Shown here in pieces: positions 3,498 through 51,533 of a DNA stretch of 64,000 bases (within the stretch, counting starts at the first letter, position 1; the number at the start of each line of letters is the position of its first letter). Both the position numbers and the translations under genes were made by a program. Source of the DNA: Candidatus Poribacteria bacterium (GTDB lineage Bacteria; Poribacteria; WGA-4E; WGA-3G). The notes under the pieces are model-generated. The model searched no databases and was not told where the DNA came from. It saw nothing but the letters and a program-made list of their open reading frames with translations. The stretch lies in NCBI GenBank assembly GCA_022824835.1, contig JAJDZB010000029.1:39999-103998 (forward strand), written 5' to 3'.

Positions 3498-4226
3498 CTA
3501 ACGAACACTGCAAATTGCATCAGCACGTAGAATCTCATAATGAGGTAAACACTCAGATAATACACCTTCCAATTCCGTAGGAAAAGGTTCGCTTTTCGGT
3601 TTATACGGAACGAATCCTACGCTCCGATGCACGTTCTCATACCAATGCGGAGCCCAAACACCATCCGAAGGATGTCCACCACGCGTCCAAGACAGCATGT
3701 CTTCCTCAAACGGTATATCCAACTGAGAACAGAGGATTGACAAAACATGCTTCGGATTAAGCAACAATTCCTTTGCATCTAAGATAGGTGGTATCTGTCC
3801 AATCTTCCGTAATTCAGTCAATAGGTCAGCTTGAATCTTCAAACCCGTATCCTTCAAGGTAGGAATCCCAATTACTTTCGTTAATGAAGGAAGCATCTCC
3901 TTCGGATCACGAATGAGTAAGACATTCACAGTCTCCTGCAAGAATGCTCTGTTAATATTAACAAGATGATGTGCCATCATTTTCATGAAAAGCACAGGTT
4001 TAGCACATGCACCTAAAATAACATCCCGAATCACTACATCCACATCCGTTTCCATTGCGGAAATAACTGCATCTCGACCAGGATGCATTGCACCGGTCGT
4101 GTGTAGATAGTGAGCATATAACGGTTCATCAATAACTTCTGTATCACTCCGTTGTGCAAAAGCGTACATCAGAGCGGTCGATATATTCCGTGGTCCTGAC
4201 CAAAGGCACACTCTTTTCGTTTGCAT
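3498..4226 (-). CDS. P-loop sulfotransferase-like family protein.
   Basis: The N-terminal 'LWSGPRNISTALMYAF' resembles the PAPS-binding P-loop of sulfotransferase-family proteins. The assignment is tentative. Confidence 0.3.
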   Translation of the reverse strand: MQTKRVCLWSGPRNISTALMYAFAQRSDTEVIDEPLYAHYLHTTGAMHPGRDAVISAMETDVDVVIRDVILGACAKPVLFMKMMAHHLVNINRAFLQETVNVLLIRDPKEMLPSLTKVIGIPTLKDTGLKIQADLLTELRKIGQIPPILDAKELLLNPKHVLSILCSQLDIPFEEDMLSWTRGGHPSDGVWAPHWYENVHRSVGFVPYKPKSEPFPTELEGVLSECLPHYEILRADAICSVR

Positions 4227-18162: not shown

Positions 18163-18332
18163 TGATCTGTTCTCCTTATCTGCTTATATAGACAAAGTAT
18201 TAGAGGTTGTCCCTCCATATATTATTTATAAAATATAAGTTACTACTTTGGTGGTGAAGTCTTATCTGATATTGTATCAGATATATGTCAAAAAAATCAA
18301 CTCTGAATAAAGGTTCTCTGTACAGGAAAAAA

Positions 18333-18470
18333 CTTGATACTGCTGTAGCACATTCATCCTTGATTGTGCTTCTTTCTCCAACCTTCATCGTCCATTACCC
18401 CTTTTCCGTACCCATTCATCTTGATATTGCTGTAGCACATTCATCCTTGATTGTGCTTCTTTCTCCAAAC
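18333..18470. repeat. Two direct copies of a 50-bp repeat, period 87 bp, in the 5' leader of the MetE-like gene.
   Basis: cttgata(c/t)tgctgtagcacattcatccttgattgtgcttctttctccaa(a)c at 18333-18382 and 18420-18470. The reverse complement contains AAGGATGAATGTGCTAC (SD-ATG-like). The same core recurs at 48293-48385 and partially at 7244-7262. Confidence 0.6.
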
Positions 18471-18504
18471 ACCTTATGCGTCAATTTAACGTGATCTTGA
18501 TAAT

Positions 18505-18545
18505 AGGATCTGGTTCGGTTAGGAAACCGAACCTACCGGCCTGGG
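18505..18545. repeat. REP-like hairpin of the GTAGG-head family, with its left arm degenerate.
   Basis: ggttcggtt-agga-aaccgaacctaccgg is the same element as the perfect 36-nt palindrome at 50333-50368. Confidence 0.45.
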
Positions 18546-18926
18546 AAAATCTGATTTATCAAACTCACGTTCAATTTAAGGATATTCTCTCTGGTTGGGT
18601 AGGCTATATAAGACCGATTTTAGTCCCATACCTTTTGCATCGCTGGGACTTGGGTTTTCCGGGATTCGTGTTCTATATATACCTTCCGCACCGATGATGC
18701 TGATATGTGATTTTCCAAAGCCTCAGAGAGGTGAAAGGTGTATAGTCCGCATAGATTCCAACCAATAGCAAGCCCCAGAGGGGCGAAAGGTGTATCAACG
18801 CACTAACGTTTTTCACTAAATTGACACCTAAAGTTTATTTACAGAAATTATGTAATGATACCATTGCAAGTTTTCTCTTTATATGGTATCATTTATGAAA
18901 CAAACAAAAAATGTCAAGAGAAGTGA

Positions 18927-39367: not shown

Positions 39368-39708
39368 TCCATCCTAATGACACTAACAATAAACGGATTG
39401 ACTCCCACATCTTGTGTCAGAGTCAATCCGTTTTGTTTCAATACAATACCCACCAAAGACGCATCTAAAGGATTAGAGTCATCGGCTTTGTCCCAATTAA
39501 AACTACGGAGTTTTCGGATGTCCAACACACTTCCATTGCCGGTTCAACTTCAATTGCTTACTATTTATGAGATATGCTGTAGTGACAACGGACTCAAAAT
39601 GAAAAATGGAATTAAAGTTTTTCTCACGGTAAGGTTTCTTCTTCTTTAGAATTACTGTTTATATTCAGGGCAAGGGTTCTGTGTCTCCCGCAGTATGTAA
39701 TCTATTGT

Positions 39709-40863
39709 TTATGTGCCTTCCACAAAATCAAGCACAACCTGTTGATGTTCTATGACAGGGCTTTCCCCTGAAACCGCAGCTGCACTGATTTCGAAGTAAG
39801 GACTTTTCAAAGATTTTTGTTGTTGTTCACAAGCATAGACATCTTCTTTCATAAAGTCGCCTGTTGCCATCGGATCGGTTTTGGGGTCCCCTTTATACTT
39901 CCCTGAGACATGTTTGCTCCAAAAACCGCTTGACCGCCAAGCTTGTGCTTCAAACTTCCATCTTGATACATTCTTGACCTTTGTCCGCAGTTCTACCTGT
40001 GTCAAGTCCGGTGCAAGGGGTGTAATATGGTAGATACTCCAACTGGACTCATCTTCAGCGAGTCCCAATCCTGGGAATAACATCGGCACCCAGACACCGA
40101 GACGGTCTCTCGGTATTTCATCAAGTAATGGCATTGATGCGTTTTTCTCTATCTCCTTTCCATACCACTCTGCAAGCGGTTCCCAAAATACATAATGGGG
40201 TCCCACGAAACTGTACTCGGCATGGCTATGCTTATACATGTGCAGCGTGCCTGAGTGAAGATGTGAGAGATGGTATACATCAATATAGTTTTCTACAACG
40301 ATCTTCCAATTCGCTTTGATCTCAAGCATTGTTCTTGCATCAGGATATTCTATGAGGTTATCTACCTGATGGGGGCCAAGGTGCGGCTCTATATCACCGA
40401 ACCATTCTGTTATTGAACACGTGTCCGGATCAGGGTGCACCCATAGCATGCCACGCCATCTATCTACGGCGGCAGGTTTTAGACCGAGACACGATTTATC
40501 TAAATCAGGAAACTCTGTTGCTGCTTCTGGCACGGCAATTAGGTTGCCCTCTAAATCATACGTCCAATCGTGATACGGGCAAGTAATCGCTTGCTTCCTT
40601 TTACCCACGGCACGCAGCAGCTGTGTGCCACGATGACGGCAGATATTATGAAACGCACGCAGCTGCCGGTCACCACCCATCACAATAAAGATATTGTTCA
40701 ATCCTGCCTGCACAGCAATATAGTCTCCCGGTTCGCTTACATCTTCAGCGAAACCGGCATACCGCCAAATCTTTGAGAAAATCTGTTCCTGCTCTCGGTC
40801 AAACCATTCTTGTGAAGTATACGCTGTGACGGGTAACACATGCATCATTTGTGTTGCGGACAT
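39709..40863 (-). CDS. Rieske [2Fe-2S] non-haem iron oxygenase, alpha-subunit type.
   Basis: The Rieske motifs are 'CRHRG' and 'CPYHDW'. The catalytic domain carries His/Asp ligands (YHLSHLHSG...). Confidence 0.75.
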   Translation of the reverse strand: MSATQMMHVLPVTAYTSQEWFDREQEQIFSKIWRYAGFAEDVSEPGDYIAVQAGLNNIFIVMGGDRQLRAFHNICRHRGTQLLRAVGKRKQAITCPYHDWTYDLEGNLIAVPEAATEFPDLDKSCLGLKPAAVDRWRGMLWVHPDPDTCSITEWFGDIEPHLGPHQVDNLIEYPDARTMLEIKANWKIVVENYIDVYHLSHLHSGTLHMYKHSHAEYSFVGPHYVFWEPLAEWYGKEIEKNASMPLLDEIPRDRLGVWVPMLFPGLGLAEDESSWSIYHITPLAPDLTQVELRTKVKNVSRWKFEAQAWRSSGFWSKHVSGKYKGDPKTDPMATGDFMKEDVYACEQQQKSLKSPYFEISAAAVSGESPVIEHQQVVLDFVEGT

Positions 40864-40898
40864 CCTCTCCCTCCATTTCGCTATTCAATCAAATACGG

Positions 40899-41246
40899 TC
40901 AATTCCACTGGAGCCACGGAATAAAACTGGATAAAATCACATACACAGACATCCATACCCACGTCCCTACGATAATCCAATATAAGACCTTATGCTCAGA
41001 ACGATCTACCGGTTCAATGATATAGACACTTCCAGACAAAATACTCGGGACAACCCACACTAAAAAGAAGATACCCCACACCCAGTTCCACTCTGGAACA
41101 AAAGTTATGGCATAAACGACGATAAGTAGAAGCACTGTGCGGATTTTATAACGGGAGATTAAACTTTCTTTACGCCCGTTCATATTGACAATACCTCTCT
41201 CTTGTAATACAGGGTTTGGCGGCTCCCCGCAGGACAGAAATGTCAT
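40899..41246 (-). CDS. Small hypothetical membrane protein.
   Basis: It is 115 aa with three hydrophobic helices. Confidence 0.3.
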   Translation of the reverse strand: MTFLSCGEPPNPVLQERGIVNMNGRKESLISRYKIRTVLLLIVVYAITFVPEWNWVWGIFFLVWVVPSILSGSVYIIEPVDRSEHKVLYWIIVGTWVWMSVYVILSSFIPWLQWN

Positions 41247-41296
41247 TCAAGAAGAGTAACCTAATGCTTAGTCAAGTGATAATTGATGGTTTGGAA

Positions 41297-41441
41297 GAGT
41301 CGGGAATCGGCCAGTTTTATATATAGTTTCCCTCCCACCATAAGCAGCCCAACGGTAGGAGTTTAAAAGGGTCGGGAATCGGAGTTCCCTCCTACCATTA
41401 GCAGCCTATCGGTAGGAACGATCTCCGAATCGCGACATTTA
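41297..41441. repeat. Two tandem REP-like nested hairpin units.
   Basis: gtcgggaatcgg...ccctcc(c/t)acc-N13-cggtaggag/aacg...ccgaatcgcgac. Each unit has cctacc/ggtagg arms. Confidence 0.45.
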
Positions 41442-41660
41442 CCCGAACGGTTAGAATGGACTATCTACTAATTTTTCTGTCATTACCATGTGGAAATGAA
41501 ATAGAGAACGGCACAATCTAACAGAATGTGCTACAATAACTGCAATAAAGGGGTATTATCAATTAGAAATGGCAAAAAGTAGAAATGGTATAAGGCACTA
41601 CCTATCATCAAGAAACCGTATATCCAATACCCGACTTGTGTGCATTCCCATAACTAAAGA

Positions 41661-47238: not shown

Positions 47239-48288
47239 TTAGCTTACGGAACGTAGCGATGATCTACGAATACTGTCTAATTCTTCTGCACTGAATACAC
47301 CCGATAGATAAAGATTGCGATACTCATCTGATACAGTCTGATCGAAAATCATCAGATCATCAGTGTTGATTGTCACAGGAACACCGTTGTCAAACAGGAC
47401 GCGAATTGGATGGAAATCAATATCTTGCACTGCACGCAACATCACATTACTGGTAGGACAAACATTCAACTGTATATTGTTTTCAGAAAGCCATTTCATG
47501 ACTTCTTCTGATTCTATAGCGGCAATACCGTGCTGAACCTCGTCTAAACCGAGTATTTCAACCGTTCTTCTAATCTCTTCAGCACCACCGAATTCACCGA
47601 CATGTGCTTTCAACTTCATACCACGTTTACCCGCTTCTCTATACAGGGGTTCCACTGCTTCGGGGGGACATGCATCCTGATGACTATATAGGTCAATAGA
47701 ATGAAATACCCCAGACTCAATCGCCTTATGCGTTAATCTCACTAAGTTTGTATCATCAGCACATTTTCGAGAAAAGCCCAATTCTGGACGCAATTCAACC
47801 TGTTGACGATACTTTTCAACTAAATTCTGAACGTAGTCATAGAACTGCTGTAGTCCATCGGAATAAAATTCTGCGATACGAATATCAAAACTTATTTCAA
47901 GCAAAACAACCCCATCCTGTATCGCATCTTTTACTGCTGAATCTCCAATAAACTCAAACCCTTTCATATTTCTGATATGAGGAATTAATGCAGTGCCTAC
48001 ATAACTGAGCATACCTTCAAGACCATCCATTTTAGACGGAGGTTTAACCAGAGATTGTCCAAGCCAACGTTCCACACTCTGTCTGCGTGTACTAAACATC
48101 ACATGACTATGAACATCTGTTTTAGGAAATGACTTGATACTCTTAATGTCAGCATTTTCGAGTGCTTGAACGAAATCCTTATGCATAGTGTGACCTTTCT
48201 TATCCATTAACCCAAATTGCCCAGGGATATTGTGAGTAATTTTTGGTTGTGTACCATAGGCGTCAATATTAACGATTCCCGAAACCAT
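47239..48288 (-). CDS. Adenosine/AMP deaminase-family metallohydrolase.
   Basis: 'FPKTDVHSHVMFS' (HxH metal site) and 'VPVTINTDDLMIFDQTVSDEY' (the TDDP-type motif). The start is uncertain; it could be the ATG at 48288 or 48207, because the ORF's extended N-terminus is encoded by the tandem repeat. Confidence 0.5.
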   Translation of the reverse strand: MVSGIVNIDAYGTQPKITHNIPGQFGLMDKKGHTMHKDFVQALENADIKSIKSFPKTDVHSHVMFSTRRQSVERWLGQSLVKPPSKMDGLEGMLSYVGTALIPHIRNMKGFEFIGDSAVKDAIQDGVVLLEISFDIRIAEFYSDGLQQFYDYVQNLVEKYRQQVELRPELGFSRKCADDTNLVRLTHKAIESGVFHSIDLYSHQDACPPEAVEPLYREAGKRGMKLKAHVGEFGGAEEIRRTVEILGLDEVQHGIAAIESEEVMKWLSENNIQLNVCPTSNVMLRAVQDIDFHPIRVLFDNGVPVTINTDDLMIFDQTVSDEYRNLYLSGVFSAEELDSIRRSSLRSVS

Positions 48289-48292
48289 TGCT

Positions 48293-48385
48293 GTAGCACA
48301 TTCATCCTTGATTGTGCCTCTTTGTAGCACATTCATCCTTGATTGTGCCTCTTTCTACAACATTCATCCTTCATTACACTTCTCC
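48293..48385. repeat. Tandem 31-bp repeat of three copies (the third degenerate), related to the repeat at 18.3 kb.
   Basis: gtagcacattcatccttgattgtgcctcttt at 48293-48323 and 48324-48354, then ctacaacattcatccttcattacacttctcc. The reverse complement carries AAGGATGAATGTGCTAC. Confidence 0.6.
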
Positions 48386-48592
48386 GTACTAAATTCACGC
48401 TTAAGGTACGATATCCCCATCGCACTGGGATGATTTTTCTTGCATGAAATTAACTTCTATTGTATGATACACACGTTATTAGTGATGAAGTGTTTCTTTA
48501 AGTATAACATCGTTTGATATTTTACGATACAGAAATCACATCTCCACTCTCCATCTACGGTGATGGAGCCAAAATCAGAAAAGGAGGAAAAG

Positions 48593-49342
48593 GTGACATA
48601 TAGAAAGACTTTTATGACGGTAATAATCTTAACCATTATACTATCACCAAGTGTCGTATTGGCTGCCGGTCTTTCGGATAATCTCGTGGGATATTGACCC
48701 TTGGATGGTAATGGTAAAGACGAATCAGGTAATGGAAATGATGCAACATTGGAAACTGGTGCAAAATGGGTGACAAATGGATGGATCAACGGTGCCATAG
48801 AAGTAGATGGCAATGGTGGACACGCGGTTGTTGATGCTGGATTTGAACTGGTTACCACAGAAATCACTGTTGCAGCAAGAGTTAACGGGTGGAGAACAAT
48901 CCCGTGGTCAGGTGTAGTTGTCGGTCGTAGTGATACAACATTTTGGTTAGGGATTGCAGACAACGACACATTGACTTATGTGTGGAATAATAACTCCGGT
49001 GAGACCTGGGGTTGGAAAGGTGCACCCGCATTTCCCCAAGACAGATGGGCGTTAGTTGCCATCGCAATCGCAGAAGATAAAGCTACCAGTTATGTCTACG
49101 ACAGAGACAGTGGAACTCTGGATTCCGCTGACAATGAAATTTCACACGTTGAGCAGACAGTCATTAATCTGAAATTCGGATGGGACGATTGCTGTGGCGC
49201 GAGATATTTCAAAGGTATCATAGACGACGTCATGGTTTTTGATCGCACTTTAAGTGCTGATGAAATTACAGATTTAGCAGCTGGTGGACTTCCTGTTGAA
49301 AGCAGAGGTAAACTCACCACTACCTGGGCAGCACTTAAGTAA
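48593..49342 (+). pseudogene. Secreted LamG (Laminin_G_3) domain protein interrupted by an in-frame TGA at the conserved Trp of the LVGYWPLDG motif.
   Basis: After the RBS AAGGAGG, GTG at 48593 gives MTYRKTFMTVIILTIILSPSVVLAAGLSDNLVGY-TGA(48695-48697)-PLDGNGKDESGNGNDATL.... Downstream, 'RYFKGIIDDVMVFDRTLSADEI' is canonical LamG_3. It ends with the C-terminal KLTTTWAALK motif. Confidence 0.55.
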
Positions 49343-49356
49343 CTTCACTTTTTTGC

Positions 49357-49535
49357 TTAGCTTGTAACGTGAGTTTGATAAATCAGAACAAATAACTTAC
49401 GTAGGTTGGGTTGAGGAACGAAACCCAACATCTTGACCTATTATAGAACAATACATGTTGCCAGTTAATATTTGATTGGCGTTCCTCAACCCAACCTACA
49501 ACGCATATTGCATTTAATTATCAAACTCACGTTAA
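49357..49535. mobile_element. REPIN/MITE-like nested inverted-repeat element of about 180 bp.
   Basis: The outer 17-bp perfect inverted repeat is taacgtgagtttgataa / ttatcaaactcacgtta. The inner 20-bp inverted repeat is cgtaggttgggttgaggaacg / cgttcctcaacccaacctac, with a GTAGG head. Confidence 0.5.
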
Positions 49536-49671: not shown

Positions 49672-50157
49672 ATGTCAAAACAGAAAATCGCAGCAAGCTT
49701 CAAAAACTTCCACGTCATTGCTCACGATTTAGATGAGACAGAAGATCTTAAAACCGAATGCAAAGAGCAATTGGGTGAAGGTGTTCGTCTTGCTGACTGG
49801 AACGATATTCTCGCCTACATTGAAGCAGGTGGTTCGGTGAAGGAGTTCATTGAAACCCTAAAGATACCACTGGAGTATGTCCATCCGGACGATATGGATC
49901 CAATCCCCAATACCGCCTATCGTATATCAATGAATGGAGAACTGCATTGGGACGATGATCGGCACTATTTCTTCGCAAGACACGATCACAAATTACGTGG
50001 AGATTTCTTAGCACACGATCATATTGATGATTTCCACCTATCGTTGGGATCATGGTTTGGTAAAGGTGGGTATGCACTACTCTTCGGAGATCCAGATAGC
50101 ACTGTTGCCCCTCCAGAACCTGAAATTAGAGAAATCGAGCAAACATCTGGCGGCTGA
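49672..50157 (+). CDS. Hypothetical acidic protein.
   Basis: It has a good RBS (AAAAGGAGA). It is bracketed by REPIN-like elements. A (GCTGAG)x3 microsatellite sits at the stop. Confidence 0.4.
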   Translation: MSKQKIAASFKNFHVIAHDLDETEDLKTECKEQLGEGVRLADWNDILAYIEAGGSVKEFIETLKIPLEYVHPDDMDPIPNTAYRISMNGELHWDDDRHYFFARHDHKLRGDFLAHDHIDDFHLSLGSWFGKGGYALLFGDPDSTVAPPEPEIREIEQTSGG

Positions 50158-50393: not shown

Positions 50394-51413
50394 TCACTCC
50401 GCCCACGGTTCCAAGACTACCTTACCACACTCACCTGTCACTTGCAATTCCCAGGCTTTTTGCACATCACGCATCGGAAATGTATGTGTAATAAATGTAT
50501 CAACTTTATCTGCAGAATCTTTTATCACCTTCATCAGTTTAGGAAAGAAACCGAGGTTATAGTGCCAATTACCTCGCAAAACTAAACCTTTACGTATCAT
50601 ATCTCTACTGGCTGCAAGTGGGAATTCGCCGCCTTCACCAACAAATGTGACTTGTCCTTTTCTACGGGCTGCATCAACCATTAACCGATGCGCTGCAGAT
50701 GCACCTGAGCAATCTACTGCTTTGTCTATACCGATACCGTTTGTCAGCTCCCGTATTTGACCGAGAATGTCCTCATCAGTCGGGTTCAGCACAACCTCTG
50801 CCCCTAACTTTTTGGCGAGTTCTGCGCGATACGGATGACTCTCCACGCCGATGACACGGGCACCACGATAACTCGCATTGATGATACCCCCTAAACCGAC
50901 AGGTCCCAAACCCGTTACCATGACAGTATCAAGAGCATCTACCTCCATCTGTTCCATTGCGCCAAATGTAGGTCCGAGCCCACAACACGCCATCCCCCCG
51001 TGTGCATAACTCATGTCATCTGGAATAGGAAATAAGAGATCCTCCATCTTATGCATATATTGGGCATAGGTTGCCCCGAAGATATCCCCTTCTACCATTT
51101 CCCGATTGTTACGTCCTCCCATACAGTGGATATGCTCACCGATAACACACATATTACACTTACCGCATGCATTTTGTGGTTGCACAACAACACGATCGCC
51201 TACTTTTACGCGTCCGGGTTGTGCCACTTCTACAACTTCTCCAGCTGCTTCGTGTCCGAAGTGTTCACCTGTATTACCAGCTTTGAATCCTTTATATTCA
51301 GTGCACATCGGAACAGCATGGATTTTGACGACAACAATATCTCCACCTGCTTTAGGATCGGGTTTGTCAACCAATCCACCTTTACCTTCACCAAACATTG
51401 CTGCTACTTTCAT
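50394..51413 (-). CDS. Zinc-dependent alcohol/polyol dehydrogenase (MDR family).
   Basis: 'GHEAAGEVVEV', 'CGKCNMC' and 'VTGLGPVGLG' (Rossmann fold). The start is at M15 of the ORF, with a GAGGTGA RBS. Confidence 0.75.
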   Translation of the reverse strand: MKVAAMFGEGKGGLVDKPDPKAGGDIVVVKIHAVPMCTEYKGFKAGNTGEHFGHEAAGEVVEVAQPGRVKVGDRVVVQPQNACGKCNMCVIGEHIHCMGGRNNREMVEGDIFGATYAQYMHKMEDLLFPIPDDMSYAHGGMACCGLGPTFGAMEQMEVDALDTVMVTGLGPVGLGGIINASYRGARVIGVESHPYRAELAKKLGAEVVLNPTDEDILGQIRELTNGIGIDKAVDCSGASAAHRLMVDAARRKGQVTFVGEGGEFPLAASRDMIRKGLVLRGNWHYNLGFFPKLMKVIKDSADKVDTFITHTFPMRDVQKAWELQVTGECGKVVLEPWAE

Positions 51414-51533
51414 ATTATCACCTCTATTTCGGTATTGAGAACACTGAAACTGCAACCGATTCTCCTATATCAAAAAATACTTTACTAAATTATATAGAAA
51501 GAATTGGTGCTATTTGACTGTCAATGCCTACAT

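Follow-up and report, generated by a model that had tools for sequence, protein, structure and literature searches.

A probable recent, lineage-private TGG to TGA nonsense mutation at an invariant tryptophan codon of a LamG gene in a sponge-associated Poribacteria genome

A conserved gene for a LamG domain protein, located at 48593-49342 on the plus strand of the window (the whole 64,000-nucleotide stretch of a Candidatus Poribacteria contig that was analyzed here), most likely carries a real, recent and lineage-private TGG to TGA nonsense mutation; the probability of this reading can be put at roughly 0.8. A single G>A transition at 48697 would have converted TGG to TGA at codon 35 (48695-48697) of a protein of about 250 amino acids that is predicted to be secreted and to adopt a ConA-like lectin fold, so that the gene would be a newly formed pseudogene or a null allele at the strain level in this sponge-associated genome. 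The event is ordinary, is of a kind already known, and involves no unusual genetic code.

The reading frame of the LamG gene extends from a GTG codon (48593-48595) to a TAA codon (49340-49342) and comprises 249 codons, with the TGA as the sole interruption. The GTG is preceded, with a spacer of 5 nucleotides, by the Shine-Dalgarno sequence AAGGAGG (48581-48587). Both elements are as described in an earlier note on this DNA and are invariant in an alignment of nine close orthologous loci (GTG in 9/9); furthermore, the GTG aligns with the methionine start of distant orthologs that begin with MAYR, MKYR or MNYK. Some gene callers choose an upstream in-frame ATG, which is missing from one sequence of the nine-sequence alignment (L007). 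Given the invariance of the GTG and the Shine-Dalgarno sequence, and the absence of the upstream ATG from L007, position 48593 is supported as the start. Residues 1-25 (48593-48667) form a predicted Sec-type signal peptide with a basic n-region (R4 and K5), a hydrophobic core and a cleavage-like motif VLA-A. This predicted N-terminal architecture is common to every full-length homolog, in agreement with the earlier description of a signal peptide ahead of the stop, and the protein is presumably secreted.

In translation, the frame reads VTYRKTFMTVIILTIILSPSVVLAAGLSDNLVGY, then TGA, then PLDGNGKDESGNGNDATL and onward, the immediate context of the stop being LSDNLVGY*PLDGNGKDESGNGNDATL. The 214 codons after the stop (codons 36-249, which together with the TAA occupy 48698-49342) are open, and the protein is 98% identical to the nearest intact ortholog, P0130. 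With the Trp restored, a match to the Laminin_G_3 profile (PF13385) spans residues 72-225 (48806-49267) with E = 4.4e-13 and a score of 50.1 bits against a Pfam gathering cut-off of 27.6. The match covers profile positions 1-150 of 151, in agreement with the earlier description of a complete domain after the TGA. The open reading frames listed for the locus are a 45-aa N-terminal stub and a TTG-initiated fragment of 213 aa (48701-49342, plus strand; P0121), with nothing longer. It is this fragment, which contains neither the signal peptide, as previously described, nor the first beta-strand, that ORF finders and gene callers report.

A search of 5.8 billion proteins for homologs yields 182 relatives, mostly of about 250 amino acids; those that are named carry the annotation 'LamG domain-containing protein [Candidatus Poribacteria bacterium]' (e.g., P0006 and P0066). 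Tryptophan occupies the column of the stop in 33 of the 33 aligned homologs that cover this position and in each of the other 14 sequences that share its 90% cluster, and the column is still invariant after the addition of relatives with 26-29% identity. At the DNA level, all 82 other loci examined, including those of relatives that are about 97% identical in nucleotides, have TGG at this position. These loci, all titled Poribacteria, consist of 3 close relatives from metagenome assemblies and 79 GTDB species representatives; two patterns were used to fetch them, one of which does not include the Trp, so that TGA-bearing copies were recoverable. No recurrence of TGA at codon 35 was detected among these 82 loci. 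Scans of JGI metagenomes for the exact TGR allele and for the degenerate pattern G-Y-TGA-P-L-D-G-N-G-K-D also gave no match, but each of these is a weak negative, the scans having had no positive control for the TGG form. The alignment with eight close relatives reveals a single G>A difference at 48697, with the flanks otherwise nearly identical. The alignment to LamG homologs thus bears out both parts of the earlier observation, namely, that the TGA replaces the conserved W of the motif LVGYWPLDG and that it arose by a TGG to TGA transition. A premature stop that corresponds to a sense codon in every other locus, and is not conserved as a stop, is what is expected of a null allele.

Before the mutation is considered further, the possibility has to be weighed that the organism actually has TGG and that the A at 48697 is a sequencing error, a polishing error or the consensus of a mixed population. 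The difference concerns a single base in a metagenome-assembled genome (MAG), and the TGA allele is known from no more than a single sample or assembly pair: the 213-aa product is found on two contigs, one of 135,622 bp (NCBI, ENA and Logan), which is presumably the source of the window, and one of 1,067 bp (Logan). The latter (L002, run SRR16351696) is 100% identical to window positions 48325-49391, including the TGA, and it breaks off within a 31-nt tandem repeat at one end and a palindromic region at the other, away from the substitution at 48697. An assembler-specific artefact is unlikely given this second assembly with the TGA. The reads of this assembly are possibly the same as those of the MAG, and if so, a systematic error or a minority-allele consensus would still be compatible with the identity of the two sequences. 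A W-restored version of the exact allele is absent from a collection of 15 billion proteins, with both plausible starts tried. In the 3.3 kb for which three or more relatives provide coverage, 23 substitutions (about 0.7%) are private to the window, a level that far exceeds any consensus error rate, so that any private difference is most likely real. The spectrum of these substitutions is ordinary, with 9 GC>AT transitions, 7 AT>GC transitions and 7 transversions. Because private divergence of this magnitude shows a normal spectrum, the TGA is best interpreted as one of many genuine lineage differences. A DNA damage artefact or another mutational oddity, considered in view of three private G>A substitutions within the gene, was rejected for the same reason. 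Together, these observations make an error at 48697 quite improbable, and we infer that the A is the true, major base in the reads.

The nonsense mutation is, judging by the state of the gene, recent. Apart from the TGA, the window copy has no lesion, with the Shine-Dalgarno sequence, the start codon and the frame all intact. The sites in the gene that are private in comparison with seven relatives are the TGA itself, an ATG>ATA substitution (M69I) and a synonymous TTG>TTA substitution; a further site, 48889, is private only with respect to a smaller set of four relatives. Among the intact LamG orthologs, omega is 0.09-0.25, which indicates that the family is under purifying selection. The combination of an intact remainder, only two or three other private substitutions and purifying selection on the family implies that the lesion is young. 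A comparison of the window gene with L003 shows 6 synonymous and 4 non-synonymous differences (dN/dS 0.195), which are too few to discriminate relaxed constraint; this value is within the range for the neighboring genes compared with L003 (0.015-0.65). The lack of a relaxed-constraint signal after the stop would be expected if the mutation is very recent and would be expected equally if the gene is still functional.

The fold of the protein was modeled with AlphaFold2 on the intact ortholog P0001 (96% identical). The model (pLDDT 86.7, pTM 0.82) is an all-beta sandwich of the ConA-like/LamG jelly roll type, in which residues 6-37 form a lone helix of low confidence (pLDDT 56-70) that corresponds to the signal-peptide stretch. 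The first beta-strand, E41-45, which belongs to a block with a pLDDT of 94, ends with the tryptophan in question (residue 45 in P0001). A Foldseek search of the PDB started with this model identifies ConA-like/LamG lectin domains with the probability of 1.00, in particular, domain 4 of the Geobacillus GH43 arabinanase AbnA (5hon_A), the lectin-like subdomain of tetanus/botulinum neurotoxin Hc, and the lectin domain of trans-sialidase. Translation from the GTG at 48593 would end after 34 residues, that is, the signal peptide and approximately 9 mature residues, and full-length LamG would be lost or greatly reduced, provided that termination at the UGA is efficient enough.

The stop is followed, at a distance of 4 nucleotides, by the start-capable TTG at 48701, and termination-reinitiation over such short distances occurs in bacteria. 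It is therefore conceivable that the gene yields a truncated cytoplasmic LamG protein with a function of its own. However, no Shine-Dalgarno sequence is found ahead of this TTG, and the product would lack both the signal peptide and, according to the P0001 model, the first beta-strand of the sandwich. Nor is such an architecture natural in any homolog: the short entries that were checked in DNA (L065/P0128, L067, L074 and L082) turned out to be IS-disrupted, frameshifted or nonsense copies, with other short entries, such as P0077 and P0108, lying outside this check. A functional reinitiation product is thus highly unlikely. Being a restart product that has no export signal, no strand 1 and no Shine-Dalgarno sequence before its TTG, the 213-aa 'LamG' protein P0121 is a gene-calling artefact of the premature stop. 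For annotation, this means that the headless P0121 is artefactual and that the locus should be marked as a pseudogene by automated pipelines.

Loss of LamG is also observed in other Poribacteria. Four of the 79 N-terminus-containing loci at the species level hold truncated copies, with unrelated lesions at different positions. The 93%-identical ortholog L065 (3495-4769, on a 5.9-Mb contig) is broken after the sequence DTLTY by a gene for a 424-aa IS605-type TnpB (OrfB_IS605, 8e-28; Cas12f1-like TNB, 5.6e-20), and its 3' part is removed. L074 (approximately 3560-4019) is disrupted by the insertion of an IS200-like Y1 transposase (3.9e-24), and L067 (185-917) by a frameshift or a small deletion. 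The paralog L082 (3001-3732) contains a TAG nonsense codon where its relatives have CAG or ATG. In addition, the database proteins P0046, P0094 and P0126 look internally deleted or frameshifted. Because the lesions differ in kind and position, LamG appears to have been lost repeatedly, and given these losses elsewhere, one more null allele is unsurprising. The preferred reading of the window locus would then make it a neat case of a null allele that arose very recently, in the gene for an accessory lectin-like protein that a sponge symbiont probably secretes or displays on its surface. Combined with the four independent disruptions elsewhere, it suggests that the Poribacteria-restricted LamG is an accessory protein that is selected for yet conditionally dispensable. 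By analogy with host-interaction and surface proteins, of which this is typical, such dispensability may be host- or niche-dependent.

Several Poribacteria genomes encode two LamG paralogs each, namely, L061 and L076 (OX638316.1), L028 and L084 (CATQHZ020000001.1), and L059 and L082 (OZ244048.1). The two paralog types, which can be denoted by their motifs GYWPLDGNGKD and NYWPLDGDATD, are about 45% identical. A second paralog, as seen in these other genomes, could compensate for the loss of one.

The genomic context of the LamG gene is conserved among close relatives: the window shares the gene order A_deaminase, LamG, hyp161, ADH with L001 and L003, to which it is about 97% identical in nucleotides, and the synteny of the window with L003 extends over 20 kb at approximately the same identity. 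Upstream, the minus strand carries a divergent gene for adenosine deaminase (47239-48207), beyond which is a gene with a DMFA2_C domain; downstream are the 161-aa hypothetical protein gene and a gene for a Zn-dependent alcohol dehydrogenase. No functional link of these neighbors to the LamG gene is evident. An antisense ORF of 170 aa (48457-48969) has no family match and was taken as spurious. A scan for sigma-70 promoters found 6 sites against 4.6 expected and is uninformative; a scan for terminators found none.

The adenosine deaminase ORF on the minus strand (47239-48336) appears to encode 365 aa, compared with 315-322 aa in relatives (ATG at 48186 or 48207). The 43-aa N-terminal extension is due to a 221-bp segment and is probably spurious. 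This segment (48208-48428), located in the intergenic region between adenosine deaminase and LamG, is missing from the close relatives L001, L003 and L004, but L065 contains it. It was considered as a second, genome-specific promoter lesion and rejected as such because L065 has it too; rather, it is a polymorphic repeat-bearing intergenic segment. The segment contains 2.7 tandem copies (48292-48384) of a 31-nt unit, TGTAGCACATTCATCCTTGATTGTGCCTCTT, with a potential for a GCACA...TGTGC hairpin. The same unit, which has no Rfam match, recurs at 18333-18468 of the window and at 2523-2836 and 6072-6256 of L065. Given this recurrence in another intergenic region and in L065, it belongs to a dispersed REP/MITE-like repeat family of the lineage. 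The second intergenic region (18163-18926) is unusually long, about 760 bp, and contains two 49-nt direct repeats 87 nt apart that include the 31-nt unit, as well as a pair of 26-nt direct repeats with a spacing of 52 nt (18718-18795); neither an Rfam family nor a tRNA was found there.

On the other side of the LamG gene, the gap between its stop codon and the next gene (49365-49534) contains nested perfect inverted repeats of 17 nt (49365-49381/49518-49534) and 20 nt (49401-49420/49480-49499). These repeats are 98% conserved in L003 and show neither a T-run terminator nor an Rfam family; they might fold into a large hairpin or cruciform, or else represent a palindromic element. Farther away, about 2.2 kb (39435-41649) present in the window and absent from the syntenic L003 carry a gene for the alpha subunit of a Rieske/ring-hydroxylating oxygenase (39709-40863, minus strand), which amounts to variation in gene content between strains. 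Next to it, the cytochrome P460 gene (38768-39367) encodes 199 aa in the window compared with 255 aa in L003.

The presence of TGA at a tryptophan position is a signature known from code-4 organisms, and this is the sole support for an alternative decoding of the codon, either through a genome-wide reassignment of the code 4/25 type or through insertion of selenocysteine at codon 35. The codon counts argue strongly against the former. The window is crowded with long table-11 ORFs. Its 47 other genes (17,997 codons) contain no in-frame TGA against 314 TGG, and within the LamG gene, TGG occurs 11 times and TGA once. Furthermore, TGA serves as a terminator: the stop codons of the 48 long ORFs of the window are TAA in 31, TAG in 10 and TGA in 7 cases, and two of the TGA-terminated ORFs (49672-50157 and 50394-51455) match called genes in L003, the first of these encoding 161 aa in both. 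A scan of the window for in-frame stops between long open stretches revealed no further real gene that a TGA splits; the remaining junctions are off-frame, antisense or intergenic. Thus, within the window, these counts and terminators rule out code 4/25-type reassignment, and they uphold the earlier judgment that genome-wide recoding of TGA as Trp is unlikely given neighboring genes that end cleanly at TGA. Selenocysteine was rejected as well: no SECIS-like hairpin is found in the 91 nt that surround and follow the TGA, for which the minimum free energy is -9.8 kcal/mol against a mean of -15.3 kcal/mol for shuffled sequences (z = +1.99), and the homologous position is Trp in every homolog aligned, with TGG in all relatives and never Cys or Sec. 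With regard to decoding components, no tRNA gene and no Rfam family at the gathering threshold was detected within the whole window, and an ARAGORN scan of the fetched loci found no tRNA-Trp and only one tRNA-Tyr. All in all, either form of alternative decoding is almost certainly wrong for this codon.

Programmed readthrough was rejected on related grounds, namely, that the stop is private to the lineage and is followed by no stimulatory structure, the downstream fold being weaker than that of the shuffled sequences. Among the options that the earlier note had left side by side, recent nonsense mutation is accordingly the best supported one, given the private G>A and the intact remainder of the gene, whereas readthrough falls in its programmed form.

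What remains is leaky readthrough, in which the near-cognate tRNA-Trp(CCA) would read UGA-C and the allele would be a hypomorph, tolerated or maintained by selection, rather than a dead gene. The base next to the TGA is C, and UGA followed by C reportedly is a weak termination context in E. coli. Insertion of Trp at codon 35 would recreate exactly the ancestral protein; because misreading would in this way restore the native product, a hypomorph is plausible, and the remainder of the LamG gene shows no decay. In E. coli reporters, no premature stop is read through as often as TGA, nearly always with insertion of Trp in its place, and the extent of readthrough varies with context, temperature and nutrition or stress from undetectable to very high (PMC11126739). 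The endogenous tRNA-Trp(CCA) causes background UGA readthrough, which is raised by variants with a 4-bp anticodon stem (PMC13092985); Poribacteria are not mentioned in this survey or in the supplements consulted. Against these considerations, the stop is conserved in 0 of 82 other loci, which argues against a programmed feature, the fold downstream is weak, the absence of decay is equally well explained by recency, and all the readthrough data come from E. coli and not from Poribacteria. On balance, a gene that functions through leaky readthrough seems rather improbable. The label 'pseudogene' may nevertheless overstate the loss of function, in that some wild-type protein may be produced via UGA misreading. 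A stronger version, in which UGA is appreciably decoded as Trp in this lineage, so that the TGG>TGA change would be nearly neutral and native full-length LamG would still be made, is very unlikely. If true, it would capture UGA-to-Trp reassignment at its ambiguous-intermediate stage, in a free-standing genome of 5 Mb with a GC content of about 42%; only if UGA is read as Trp at high rates here would the site be of interest for the evolution of the genetic code.

The reading of the locus as a recent nonsense mutation can be set against several known systems. At the level of the fold, the protein resembles the members of PF13385 and the ConA-like lectin/glucanase superfamily, with an HMM score above the gathering threshold and a confident beta-sandwich in the P0001 model, but the identity to solved ConA-like structures is only 13-18%, and the domain stands alone here instead of being a module of an enzyme or toxin. 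At the level of the family, its affinity is with the Poribacteria group of ~250-aa LamG proteins, to whose nearest members (the closest intact ones being P0130 and P0001) the window protein is full-length colinear and 96-98% identical. The group has in common the GTG start with its Shine-Dalgarno sequence, the signal peptide-like N-terminus, the motif GYWPLDGNGKD, and the synteny from adenosine deaminase via LamG to the 161-aa hypothetical protein. Within this group, the window copy alone has TGA in place of TGG at codon 35 and does not possess an uninterrupted frame from the signal peptide to the C-terminus, and is thus a disrupted member. [quoted passage not shown] The locus can also be compared with ordinary bacterial nonsense pseudogenes, or strain-level null alleles of accessory surface proteins: there is one private stop, the remainder is intact, the orthologs are under purifying selection, and other lineages have lost LamG by IS insertion, frameshift or a different stop. 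Nothing sets the window locus apart from such pseudogenes, the sole curiosity being that the stop is a UGA at a Trp codon, where misreading would restore the native residue.
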